A stretch of DNA of 64,000 nt, from the sequence record NC_028957.1, one strand, 5' to 3'. The DNA is from Escherichia phage vB_EcoM_VR26. How positions within the stretch are numbered: position 1 is the stretch's first letter; each line of letters begins with the position of its first letter. A model generated the notes under the pieces. It worked only from the letters and a program-made list of their open reading frames with translations, did no database searches and was not told the origin of the DNA. The position numbers were made by a program, and so were the translations under genes. Positions 29,809-32,395 of this stretch are shown here, in pieces.

Positions 29809-30099
29809 TCATTTGCAACGTTCCTCTTTTAGTTCAGAACGATAATAACATAACATACCTTTTTGGTCATGTACATATCTTTTTACATCATTCATCCAAA
29901 TCCTGAATTCTTGCGATGCTTCAAAAGGCATACCAACCCAGGCTTGACCCTCAATTACCTTCACTTCCCATTGCTGCTTATAATCAGCCAATGCAACAGG
30001 CCAATTAGGATGAACTTGGATTGTGGGCTCCACAACGGGCTTCTGGGCACATGAAACGAGTCCGATAGCCAAACATACTGCCATGATAGATTTCATCAT
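29809..30099 (-). CDS. o-spanin (outer-membrane lipoprotein, Rz1 equivalent; T4 PseT.2-like)
   Basis: 96 aa; signal peptide with lipobox LVSC; ATG overlaps upstream i-spanin stop; T4 spanins are known to be pseT.3/pseT.2. Confidence 0.72.
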   Translation of the reverse strand: MMKSIMAVCLAIGLVSCAQKPVVEPTIQVHPNWPVALADYKQQWEVKVIEGQAWVGMPFEASQEFRIWMNDVKRYVHDQKGMLCYYRSELKEERCK

Positions 30100-30449
30100 T
30101 TGGTGAGCTCCTGGAAGTCCTGGGCAAACTTATCAAAGGACTGATTAATCTGTTTTTCAACTAATTTAGGCTTAGCTGCCACAACCTTAGTACGTTTTGC
30201 ATCTGCGCGAAGTTTATCATTTTCCTTCTGCAGAAGTTCAACATATTCCTGGCGCTCCTGGTCAAGGAGATTAATTTGATTAACCTGGTCTTTTATTGAT
30301 TGCAGATTTTTTGCGTTATCTTCTGCAACTTTGGTGACCGCAGCCACCTCTGTCTTGAGATTATCCACTTTTGCTTTTAGATAGAAACCACTACCAGCAG
30401 TTACTACCAGGGCAAGCATAAGCCCTGCGGTCAGATTACTTATTTGCAT
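30096..30449 (-). CDS. i-spanin (inner-membrane, Rz equivalent; T4 PseT.3-like)
   Basis: 117 aa; N-terminal TM helix LTAGLMLALVVTAGSGFYL followed by coiled-coil-prone region. Confidence 0.72.
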   Translation of the reverse strand: MQISNLTAGLMLALVVTAGSGFYLKAKVDNLKTEVAAVTKVAEDNAKNLQSIKDQVNQINLLDQERQEYVELLQKENDKLRADAKRTKVVAAKPKLVEKQINQSFDKFAQDFQELTK

Positions 30450-30943
30450 AACTTGATGATTACCTCAACAATATCATCCTGGGATAAACCATTCAGGAGG
30501 ATGTGATTTGTACTGTCAGATGCTGAAATGCGGAACTGATTACCAACTTCATCCGCCATATCATCCTGGGTTAACACTGGGTGTTTAATTCCCAGGCGGT
30601 GTTGAAGTGTCAGGGGTTCAACCACAACATAACAAACACATCCATTGATATGCACATTAGGTTGGGTCTGATTGATGAACACTTCTGCATCATATTTAAC
30701 CAAATGGTTCTTTAAGAAGTCAACCATTTCTGGAACAGATTCATGAAGGGCTTCTTTCCGCTCTTCTGATTTCTTATTGCGATATTCCTTCTGTTTGGTC
30801 TTCAACTTATTATCAGACGCCAGTTTCTTTCTTAAGTCAGTAAGGAACCCAACATTTTTGGAACCTTTATAAACATAGATTCCGTCATGGCGGTCACCAT
30901 ATACATCAACAATCATATCATTTGAAATCAGTTGCATATTCAT
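30440..30943 (-). CDS. alc: Alc-like protein (host transcription shut-off), by position and size
   Basis: Internal start MNMQLISNDMIVDVYGDRHDGIYVYKG… gives 167 aa, the length recalled for T4 Alc; located between spanins and rnlA as in T4. Confidence 0.5.
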   Translation of the reverse strand: MNMQLISNDMIVDVYGDRHDGIYVYKGSKNVGFLTDLRKKLASDNKLKTKQKEYRNKKSEERKEALHESVPEMVDFLKNHLVKYDAEVFINQTQPNVHINGCVCYVVVEPLTLQHRLGIKHPVLTQDDMADEVGNQFRISASDSTNHILLNGLSQDDIVEVIIKLCK

Positions 30944-30953
30944 AATATTTTCC

Positions 30954-31187
30954 TCAATAGCGGTTATAACCTCTAGGACCAAAAGAGTTTGCACCCAGGC
31001 GCTCATCTTTCTTTTTAGCTCTTGCTCTAAACCCAGAATCACCTGTTTGGTCTTTCAGTTCTTTTAACAATTTGGCCTTCAGGTCAGTAATGAAACCAAT
31101 CCGGCGGTCTCCCTTGTAGACATAGATTCCATCATTTCTGTCGCCATATGCCTTTGTAACTCTGTCATTTGAAATTAAGTTTAACAT
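30954..31187 (-). CDS. paralogue of the Alc-like N-terminal domain
   Basis: MLNLISNDRVTKAYGDRNDGIYVYKGDRRIGFITDLKAKL… parallels MNMQLISNDMIVDVYGDRHDGIYVYKGSKNVGFLTDLRKKL of the downstream gene. Confidence 0.5.
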   Translation of the reverse strand: MLNLISNDRVTKAYGDRNDGIYVYKGDRRIGFITDLKAKLLKELKDQTGDSGFRARAKKKDERLGANSFGPRGYNRY

Positions 31188-31218
31188 GTTTTGGTCCTCA
31201 TCAGTAGTTGATGGAACC

Positions 31219-31247
31219 ATTATGTATAGAAAGAAGGGGCTTGTACA
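31219..31247 (-). promoter_or_regulatory. T4-type early promoter (TGTACA–17 nt–CATAAT) overlapping a GC hairpin
   Basis: Minus strand …ggggTGTACAagccccttctttctataCATAATggttcc. Confidence 0.45.
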
Positions 31248-31258
31248 CCCCTTTTTTA

Positions 31259-32395
31259 TTATTCAGGCAGGATTACATCCGCTTGGTAGTCCGCTGGGAT
31301 GTAAAGTTTATGATTTTTAAGGAAAACATTATTGATTTGAGCGATAGTTTGCTCTGTTTCCTGGGGACGTTGATAGGTGTTCATTAATACAGAGAACAAA
31401 CCCGGATATGGTTTACACAGTTCTTGACCTTTAATCGCAAACTCGCGTCGGTCTTTTCCTGCCAACTGTTTCTGGGCATCAAGCAACAGTCCCAGGGTAT
31501 TGGACAGATAATCCAGATGGGTCAAAGTAAAGGCATTAACTTTTTCACGAGCATACTCATCGCCAGTAAACATGGCAATAACATCATCTGCACCGCCTGC
31601 AACAACAACTTCAAAAAGACGCTGGTTATTGTTAACAGAATCCTTTGTATGGTGTAAAGCACAATACCATTCTGTCTTAACTTTAAATTTGCGACCATCG
31701 ACCAGCTCATAGACAAAGCCTTCAATCTCTTTCATATCACGGACGTTTTCAATTGTAGCCGGGTCATATGCTTCAACCAGGAATGGACGAAGCGCTGCAT
31801 CTTTAAACAAATCCTGATAAGGGATATATTCACCAGTTTCATTATGGCGAACGTTCAGTAAAATCAGGTCACGTTCCTGGTAAGGCAAAACAATGCGGTT
31901 GGTTGGCGCAACATATTCCATATTGCATGTATAACCAGCTTCAGTAATTTCAGTTACGCGCTCACGGAAAGCTATACGGTGTTCTTGTTTGAATACCTGC
32001 AGCGCTTCTGCAGCCTGGGAGCTTTTGATTGACCCTTTGGATTTAAAAGCAATATTGGTCTGGTCCATATAAGTGGAGACAAGAGAGCCATCGGCCTTGG
32101 TCATGACCAGCGCAACTTCATCCATATTGATATCCATGGTCAACGGATTTTCGCCTAAGTTAAAGAACTTTTCCATAGGACGAGCCGCAATACGAACTGG
32201 ACCATCTGCATCCATTTCAAACATAATGCCGCGGCACTCTAATGCATCATCAAGGAGCCAATCACTATAGGAAGCATAGTTATAGCTAAAGATGCGGAAC
32301 TTGGTTTCAAATGGAGAAACGAAATCAGTATAGAAAAACTTACCTTTTTCAGATTCAGCACACAGCTTCATTAAGTTGTCATATAATTCAATCAT
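31259..32395 (-). CDS. rnlA: RNA ligase 1
   Basis: 378 aa; …YRIFSYNYASYSDWLLDDALECRGIMFEMD…MTKADGSLVSTY… matches T4 Rnl1 as recalled, including the ligase lysine motif K(A/E)DGSL. Confidence 0.92.
   Translation of the reverse strand: MIELYDNLMKLCAESEKGKFFYTDFVSPFETKFRIFSYNYASYSDWLLDDALECRGIMFEMDADGPVRIAARPMEKFFNLGENPLTMDINMDEVALVMTKADGSLVSTYMDQTNIAFKSKGSIKSSQAAEALQVFKQEHRIAFRERVTEITEAGYTCNMEYVAPTNRIVLPYQERDLILLNVRHNETGEYIPYQDLFKDAALRPFLVEAYDPATIENVRDMKEIEGFVYELVDGRKFKVKTEWYCALHHTKDSVNNNQRLFEVVVAGGADDVIAMFTGDEYAREKVNAFTLTHLDYLSNTLGLLLDAQKQLAGKDRREFAIKGQELCKPYPGLFSVLMNTYQRPQETEQTIAQINNVFLKNHKLYIPADYQADVILPE

Follow-up and report, generated by a model that had tools for sequence, protein, structure and literature searches.

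Alc of bacteriophage T4 (alc/unf, PF17527, PHROG 1253) terminates transcription by the Escherichia coli RNA polymerase at specific sites if the template DNA contains cytosine but not if it is modified, and mutations in the dispensable region I of the beta subunit (rpoB) block its action; otherwise, its mechanism has been unsolved since the early 1990s (PMC2988021). Induction of T4 alc by itself in E. coli lowers plating by about four logs (bioRxiv 10.64898/2026.09.14.751387). In T4, alc directly follows rnlA and is followed by the spanin genes pseT.3 and pseT.2. Here we analysed 64,000 nt of the genome of Escherichia phage vB_EcoM_VR26 (NC_028957.1; this whole stretch is called the window, and all coordinates are positions in it). 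The same genes are present in the same order on the minus strand, with an additional open reading frame (ORF) of 77 codons between rnlA and alc. Comparative sequence analysis showed that this ORF is a real, conserved phage gene and not a remnant. Its product, below called the short protein, consists of an N-terminal module shared with Alc (N-module) and a conserved C-terminal tail.

The existence of the short gene is not new, since it is already part of public annotation. In Shigella phage SP18 the pair has been annotated as alca and alcb since 2010 (alcb corresponds to ADO19581.1 and carries the note 'similar to N-terminal region of bacteriophage JS98 Alc'), and in phage VR7 the gene is annotated as ORF243c with similarity to T4 Alc. 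The short protein matches PHROG 17715 with residues 1-77 on positions 1-77 (expect value E 3e-54), and this family is labelled 'inhibitor of host transcription'. This label is a transfer by similarity, and we found no functional studies of the short gene in the literature searched. New in this work are the proof that alc is a true Alc gene, the selection acting on the short gene, its older origin and uncultured orthologues, the motif in its tail, the layout with a shared promoter and the reading of Alc in terms of domains.

Relationship of the short ORF to alc

An earlier note on this DNA proposed a tandem duplication of the N-terminal domain of an Alc-like protein, with the caveat that the Alc assignment was based on position and size only. 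This caveat is now settled at the level of sequence. The product of the downstream gene is 57% identical to T4 Alc (95/166, gap-free, E 1e-71 in BLASTP), matches the Pfam family PF17527 (ALC) at profile positions 1-176 of 177 (E 4.3e-51) and matches PHROG 1253 (E 4e-75). It has the same length as T4 Alc, and its gene occupies the same position, with rnlA on one side and the spanin genes pseT.3 and pseT.2 on the other. The match to T4 Alc extends over the full length, so that the objection that the downstream gene might not be an Alc homologue falls away: by sequence, it is one. Its start is the ATG at 30943 and its end is at 30440. The ORF listing stretches alc to a GTG at 31042, and this extension is not conserved.

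The upstream ORF was found at 30954-31187 (77 aa plus stop) with the sequence that the earlier note had quoted. The short protein matches the start of VR26 Alc with 31/62 identities (BLASTP, E 2e-18) and is 51% identical to T4 Alc over 55 residues. With PF17527 it reaches 37.1 bits (cut-off 25; E 3e-9), but the match covers no more than positions 3-62 of the 177 in the profile. A profile hidden Markov model (HMM) of Alc matches residues 1-47 in the uncultured orthologues described below and residues 3-61 in VR26, where the match reaches residue 61 due to a Lys-rich stretch; it matches only in the ORF's own frame. At the DNA level, a repeat of 65 nt with 72% identity and a 17-nt block were detected, both at a spacing of 247, which is the codon-aligned offset. 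The pairwise alignment and the DNA repeat together bear out a partial tandem duplication of the Alc N-terminal region. The duplicated unit starts at or before the ribosome-binding site, since TGAGGA is found ahead of both ATGs, and it ends near codon 47.

Over the common module the two copies are approximately 59% identical in DNA, and their longest exact match comprises 12-16 nt. Thus, the duplication is old and was not followed by recent gene conversion. Recent duplication or gene conversion, which we considered as an explanation for the two copies, was ruled out by the same value and by the lack of long identical tracts. Over the N-module, the Alc of the same phage is no nearer to the short form than other Alc proteins are. 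Therefore, the short gene may have originated either by duplication in place or by unequal recombination with a foreign alc, which are not distinguishable from each other.

Two side observations concern the history of this region. A 12-nt exact match (AAGACCAAACAG) links the two copies out of frame (31043-31054 and 30791-30802, minus strand), with a spacing of 252 and not 247. It is confined to the sub-lineage comprising VR7, VR25 and VR26, in which both copies differ from the other genomes at that spot, and could be a micro-conversion or a coincidence. Further, two deeply diverged alc alleles exist within the genus Gaprivervirus, to which these phages belong, and their divergence is restricted to the 5' end of alc (positions 30740-30943, loci L003-L012). 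Between the alc genes of VR26 and VR20, 35 of the 38 differences fall within nt 1-210, and synonymous polymorphism (pS) in alc is 0.32 in codons 1-46 vs 0.09 in the remainder. Among the Gaprivervirus genomes, the alc alleles occur in shuffled combinations with the haplotypes of the short gene. This shuffling and the 5'-confined divergence point to a recombination mosaic boundary inside alc.

Selection, start codon and distribution of the short gene

The short ORF was extracted from 13 Gaprivervirus genomes (VR26 and 12 others), which represent 12 distinct DNA haplotypes, and the ratio of non-synonymous to synonymous polymorphism (pN/pS) was calculated from Nei-Gojobori counts. The ORF is intact, with 77 codons, in all 13 genomes. 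Its pN/pS is 0.11 as a whole, the value also obtained for Alc itself, and 0.04 in codons 45-77. Codons 50-77 contain 11 variable sites, all of them synonymous and none non-synonymous, a pattern that we estimate to be very unlikely for untranslated DNA. Since the varying sites are third positions of the short-ORF frame, no overlapping frame is constrained. By this pattern of variation the upstream ORF behaves as a translated gene.

The true start of the short gene is the ATG at 31187, with GAGGA 8 nt upstream. An 88-aa version starting from 31220 was ruled out because SP18-type genomes have an in-frame TAA two codons ahead of the ATG at 31187; in addition, the ATG of the longer version falls inside the -10 hexamer of the promoter-like site described below. 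Public records (PP693301.1, MW233709.1, PQ671644.1, MW598459.1, MT611523.1 and PQ341120.1) are in conflict at this locus: alc is stretched to 189 aa from an upstream GTG overlapping the short gene, and the short gene is stretched to 88 aa. The label 'PRC domain-containing protein' (PRC-barrel), given to the product in the record of phage EAWsc9, was also rejected, as a Pfam scan up to E = 1 yielded ALC only.

Full-length matches to the short protein were found in 33 of 50,697 phage records, all with at least 90% identity. In a collection of 15 billion proteins, the 90%-identity cluster contains 38 distinct sequences from many contigs, and its listed members have 77 aa, or 88 aa via the alternative start. 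More distant relatives come from uncultured phages. The Alc proteins P0005 and P0006, encoded on metagenome contigs, are 79-80% identical to VR26 Alc, and on their contigs rnlA and alc likewise flank an ALC-family ORF of 77-78 aa, with an equally short gap. Short orthologues at the uncultured loci L014, L015 and L017 are approximately 47-50% identical to the VR26 short protein, and the order rnlA, short gene, alc is the same. In lineages whose Alc is less similar, namely the P0009 type (63%) and T4, rnlA is directly followed by alc, and there is no short gene.

An exhaustive profile search among 1.84 billion representative proteins gave only two short-form clusters with such an architecture (P0002 and P0035), in addition to a few ordinary Alc proteins and P0037. 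Searches for further short-form lineages returned only VR25 and VR20 themselves in IMG/VR, and only the clusters P0001, P0002 and P0034 when they were word-based. P0037 was rejected as a short form, since it is the frameshifted alc of the Tequatrovirus G28 (Escherichia phage vB_EcoM-G28, AVH86055.1). This 63-aa protein corresponds to residues 1-48 of a T4-type Alc followed by frameshifted sequence, and is due to an apparent alc frameshift or to a sequencing error; if real, it would be a natural N-module-only allele of alc in a T4-like phage.

The conserved C-terminal tail

The earlier note described the ORF as mirroring the first residues of Alc and then diverging into a basic tail. The first part holds, with a homology of about 47 residues. 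The tail, however, is not mere divergence, since a motif in it is kept across three lineages: GF...G-x-NSFGP-x-G-x-N-[KR]-[FY], located at the C-terminus, is common to Gaprivervirus, L014/L015 and L017 (VR26 GDSGFRARAKKKDERLGANSFGPRGYNRY; L014 GGGFGWKKPQRPVRRHGANSFGPGTENKF; L017 LGGFGWRKPKPVRRLGRNSFGPDGLNKF). Local alignments of the tails alone scored above every one of 5000 shuffles for each pair of the three lineages, and when 2.3 Gb of phage DNA was searched by tblastn with the L017 tail alone, the top matches were the short ORFs of Gaprivervirus. This pattern is common to all three lineages. Therefore, on the strength of these alignments, the short form arose once, before the lineages split, in an ancestor that Gaprivervirus shares with at least two uncultured relatives, and the tail is a functional sequence. 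Defined by the N-module and the tail motif, and by its location between rnlA and alc, the short-form subfamily comprises VR26, the 12 other Gaprivervirus phages, L014, L015 and L017.

In the structure model of the short protein, the tail has a predicted local distance difference test score (pLDDT) below 50, and it is predicted to be disordered. No relatives of the tail were found in PDB sequences, PADLOC, Pfam (ALC only) or other phage proteins. A frameshifted piece of Alc was considered as the source of the tail and rejected: the Alc HMM was run on all three frames in three lineages and matched nothing outside residues 1-47(61) in the frame of the ORF. The out-of-frame 12-nt identity AAGACCAAACAG cannot explain the tail, because it is restricted to the VR7/VR25/VR26 sub-lineage, whereas the tail is also found in L014 and L017.

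Domain organization of Alc and of the short protein

No solved structure of Alc was found in the PDB by sequence match. An AlphaFold model based on 30 homologues (pLDDT 92.9) consists of a helix (residues 8-15), a hairpin (23-33), a long helix of 47 residues (34-80) and an alpha/beta domain (87-166). When Alc was compared with viral models using Foldseek, MotA proteins were listed with E from 2e-3 to 7e-2. In the model, the C-terminal domain (C-domain) of Alc appears to resemble the DNA-binding 'double-wing' domain of T4 MotA, and from this fold we infer that it may bind DNA. In the literature searched, neither a structure of Alc nor a link between Alc and a MotA-like fold was found.

The short protein does not have the full Alc architecture: the homology stops at residue 47-61, and the length is 77 aa vs 165-169 aa. 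It retains the helix-hairpin unit together with about 15 residues of the long helix. Approximately 120 residues are missing from it, namely the greater part of the long helix and the whole C-domain, in which Alc has the invariant QPNV motif (N91, Q94, P95, N96, V97). The model of the short protein itself, built from a three-sequence alignment, has a pLDDT of 56, with values of about 76 for the hairpin (22-32) and the helix (33-48). Only these two elements are usable, and a deeper alignment including Alc N-termini would be preferable. The BFVD model of the VR25 short protein superposes on the Alc N-terminus with a template modeling (TM) score of 0.61.

The short forms retain the residues I6, G16, D20, G21, I22 and G32, which are invariant in the N-module of Alc, as well as D36 and L37, which are nearly so. 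At the hairpin turn they have an acidic residue. The N-module alone led to distant Alc proteins (162-163 aa) and is therefore the part of the family that is conserved best.

Gene arrangement and expression signals

Compared with other Gaprivervirus phages, the VR26 region is 98.8% identical to that of vB_EcoM_VR25, 98.5% to VR7 and 95.6% to SP18, and the locus is covered in 32 of 32 matching phage records. Its features are listed in Table 1.

In the earlier note the short gene was credited with an early promoter of its own. There is a weak site, TGTACA-17-CATAAT, at the position which corresponds to that of the T4 alc promoter, and most likely it serves alc too. The T4 rnlA-alc spacer contains TTTACA-17-TATAGT followed by GAGGA and ATG, which is the shape of a T4 early promoter. 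At the matching place, L014 has TTTACA-17-TAGTAT and L017 has TTTACT-17-CATAAT. In the scan, no other promoter-like site was found on this strand between the site at 31219-31247 and alc. A MotA-dependent middle promoter and a late promoter were considered for both genes and rejected, as neither a MotA box nor the late motif TATAAATA was found by motif search in 30400-31500.

The gap between the short gene and alc is 10 nt, and TGAGGA, in which the stop codon overlaps the Shine-Dalgarno sequence, is kept in all lineages. Since only 10 nt separate the two genes, they are probably co-transcribed, and the simplest reading of the consensus matches and the positional homology is one early transcript with the short gene followed by alc. 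The upstream promoter, the short gap and the stop codon overlapping the ribosome-binding site of alc suggest that the short protein and Alc are probably made together.

The terminator-like hairpin after rnlA is nearly invariant in the 13 Gaprivervirus genomes, but L014 and L017 do not have it. Its loop contains the -35 hexamer of the promoter-like site, and terminator and promoter thus overlap (31219-31253).

Table 1. Features of the rnlA-alc region of phage VR26.
Feature	Position	Strand	Basis or remark
rnlA (RNA ligase 1), upstream neighbour	31259..32395	-	ORF; annotated rnlA in VR7, SP18 and VR25
G+C-rich terminator-like hairpin followed by CTTTCT, just past the rnlA stop	31234..31253	-	Terminator scan
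Sigma-70 promoter-like site, TGTACA-17-CATAAT	31219..31247	-	9/12 consensus matches
Shine-Dalgarno sequence of the short gene (GAGGA), located 8 nt ahead of its ATG	31195..31199	-	Kept in 12/13 genomes
Short Alc paralogue, 77 aa plus stop (SP18 alcb, VR7 ORF243c, PHROG 17715)	30954..31187	-	
Short gene, codons 1-48: Alc-type N-module	31044..31187	-	Alc HMM, structure models
Short gene, codons 49-77 plus stop: Gly/Arg/aromatic tail with conserved ...LGANSFGPRGYNRY-COOH, predicted to be disordered	30954..31043	-	
Shine-Dalgarno sequence of alc (GAGGA), which overlaps the stop codon (TGA) of the short gene	30951..30955	-	Sequence
alc, full-length orthologue of T4 alc, 167 aa	30440..30943	-	BLASTP, Pfam, PHROG
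i-spanin of the pseT.3 type, downstream neighbour	30096..30449	-	PHROG 739 (Rz-like spanin), E 6e-36; annotated in SP18 and VR7

Proposed role of the short protein

The most likely role of the short protein, to which we would give an even chance, is that of a paralogue which consists of a docking module only and acts on the Alc pathway. The 5' end of alc, together with its ribosome-binding site, was duplicated in tandem and gave rise to a gene for an N-module with a new short tail; this gene is probably transcribed early from the promoter that serves alc in T4. In Alc, the C-domain would probably face the DNA template, and the N-module would probably dock, either on the host RNA polymerase (genetics places Alc on the beta subunit) or on Alc itself; that the N-module is a docking module has about even odds. 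The short protein could then dock at the same partner without bringing a DNA-facing domain, and could tune or limit the action of Alc or carry its own tail to the docking site. The suggestion of the earlier note that the truncated paralogue could modulate Alc or compete with it is plausible.

Several of our observations weigh against this proposal. The structure model of the short protein has low confidence (pLDDT 56), and the promoter is a consensus match only, with a -35 element that in the genus is one base off the T4-type GTTTACA. In all short forms the near-invariant Alc residue Q4 is replaced by N, and M10 by R or L; therefore, the partner or the affinity may differ from those of Alc. 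Between lineages, the short protein diverges faster than Alc, with 47% vs 79% identity. Finally, one metagenome assembly of a Gaprivervirus, L016, has a 38-nt deletion which destroys the tail of the short gene. The affected region (2001-2228 in ENA ERZ27275844, contig k141_9694) encodes a 75-aa frameshifted product (P0002) overlapping alc, and represents either a natural variant with a dispensable tail or an assembly error.

The main rival explanation is that the short protein is an independent effector, in which the N-module is a mere folded scaffold and the C-terminal peptide is the active part, with a target that is not connected with Alc, such as a nucleic acid or another host protein. The strong constraint on the tail, which with a pN/pS of 0.04 is the most strongly constrained part within the genus, fits this explanation, as do the invariant NSFGP and C-terminal [KR][FY] across lineages and the changes at Q4 and M10. 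We consider it less likely than the docking proposal, since in every lineage seen the gene stays by alc with the 10-nt gap and the same promoter, the core residues of the N-module are kept, and the tail has no detectable relative which would hint at another target. Alternatively, the ORF could be a translational leader whose peptide has no function, and ribosomes finishing it would reinitiate at alc. The overlap of its stop codon with the Shine-Dalgarno sequence of alc and the constant gap in all lineages are what one would expect in this case. However, selection acts at the amino acid level (0 non-synonymous vs 11 synonymous sites in codons 50-77), the tail motif persists at an overall identity of 47-50%, and alc is expressed in T4 and in the P0009 lineage in the absence of such an ORF, all of which make a leader very improbable.

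It is even harder to believe that the ORF is a decaying remnant of the duplication. Such a pseudogene could be truncated in comparison to Alc, could suffer a frameshifting 38-nt deletion as in the one assembly mentioned above, and could have the narrow spread that we observed (two short-form clusters among 1.84 billion representative proteins), but it should not be under purifying selection, nor keep its own ribosome-binding site and a constant length of 77-78 aa in three lineages whose short proteins are only 47-50% identical. Least credible of all is a programmed frameshift, by which ribosomes would shift from the short ORF to the open frame of alc and produce a fusion of the N-module to Alc. 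In VR26 the alc frame is indeed open for 33-36 codons upstream of the alc ATG, where it overlaps the tail, and some records annotate an Alc of 188-189 aa. But in L017 this frame contains a stop 7 codons upstream of the alc ATG, synonymous variation of the short frame is unrestricted within the overlap (pS 0.18, above that of the N-module), and the HMM scan found no Alc-like sequence in the other frames. On these three grounds the fusion was rejected.

In one specific version of the docking-module proposal, the short protein would serve the phage as an intrinsic antagonist or timer of Alc, occupying the Alc site on the RNA polymerase or capping Alc. We think that this is improbable. If true, a phage reported to lack the hydroxymethylcytosine pathway would keep a cytosine-sensing terminator and spare its own genes. 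The NSFGP tail would be a new polymerase-directed peptide motif, and the pair formed by the two genes would provide natural material for separation-of-function studies of the Alc mechanism.

Significance and comparison with known systems

Gaprivervirus phages were reported to lack the dCMP (deoxycytidine monophosphate) hydroxymethylase gene while keeping alc, denA, denB and dCTPase, and an unknown DNA modification was proposed for them (PMC8056088, PMC12115623). This makes a modified Alc system in Gaprivervirus more interesting, but nothing in our data ties the short gene to it. For Alc in general, our results mean that its first ~48 residues are able to survive as a separate unit under selection. 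Considered along with the MotA-like fold of the C-domain, this persistence suggests a division of labour between a docking part and a DNA-facing part. The impact is limited by the presence of the gene only in Gaprivervirus and two uncultured relatives, and by the fact that it was already annotated. At the practical level, the label of the short gene was carried over by similarity, and several records start one or both genes at the wrong codon.

Among described proteins, T4 Alc is closest to the short protein, which shares its first ~48 residues. The differences are the tail, which no Alc has, the missing ~120 residues and the two changed near-invariant positions of the N-module, and termination of transcription by the short protein should not be presumed. 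The likeness to the C-terminal double-wing domain of T4 MotA (PDB 5jlt, 6k4y) belongs to full-length Alc, as the short protein is without this domain. A further comparison is offered by microProteins, small single-domain paralogues which occupy the interaction surface of their multi-domain relatives and thereby interfere with them, such as the Id proteins and LITTLE ZIPPER. These are eukaryotic and unrelated in sequence, and the likeness is one of mechanism by analogy only: as in microProteins, a short paralogue seems to keep one interaction-type module of a larger regulator, with which it is probably co-expressed.

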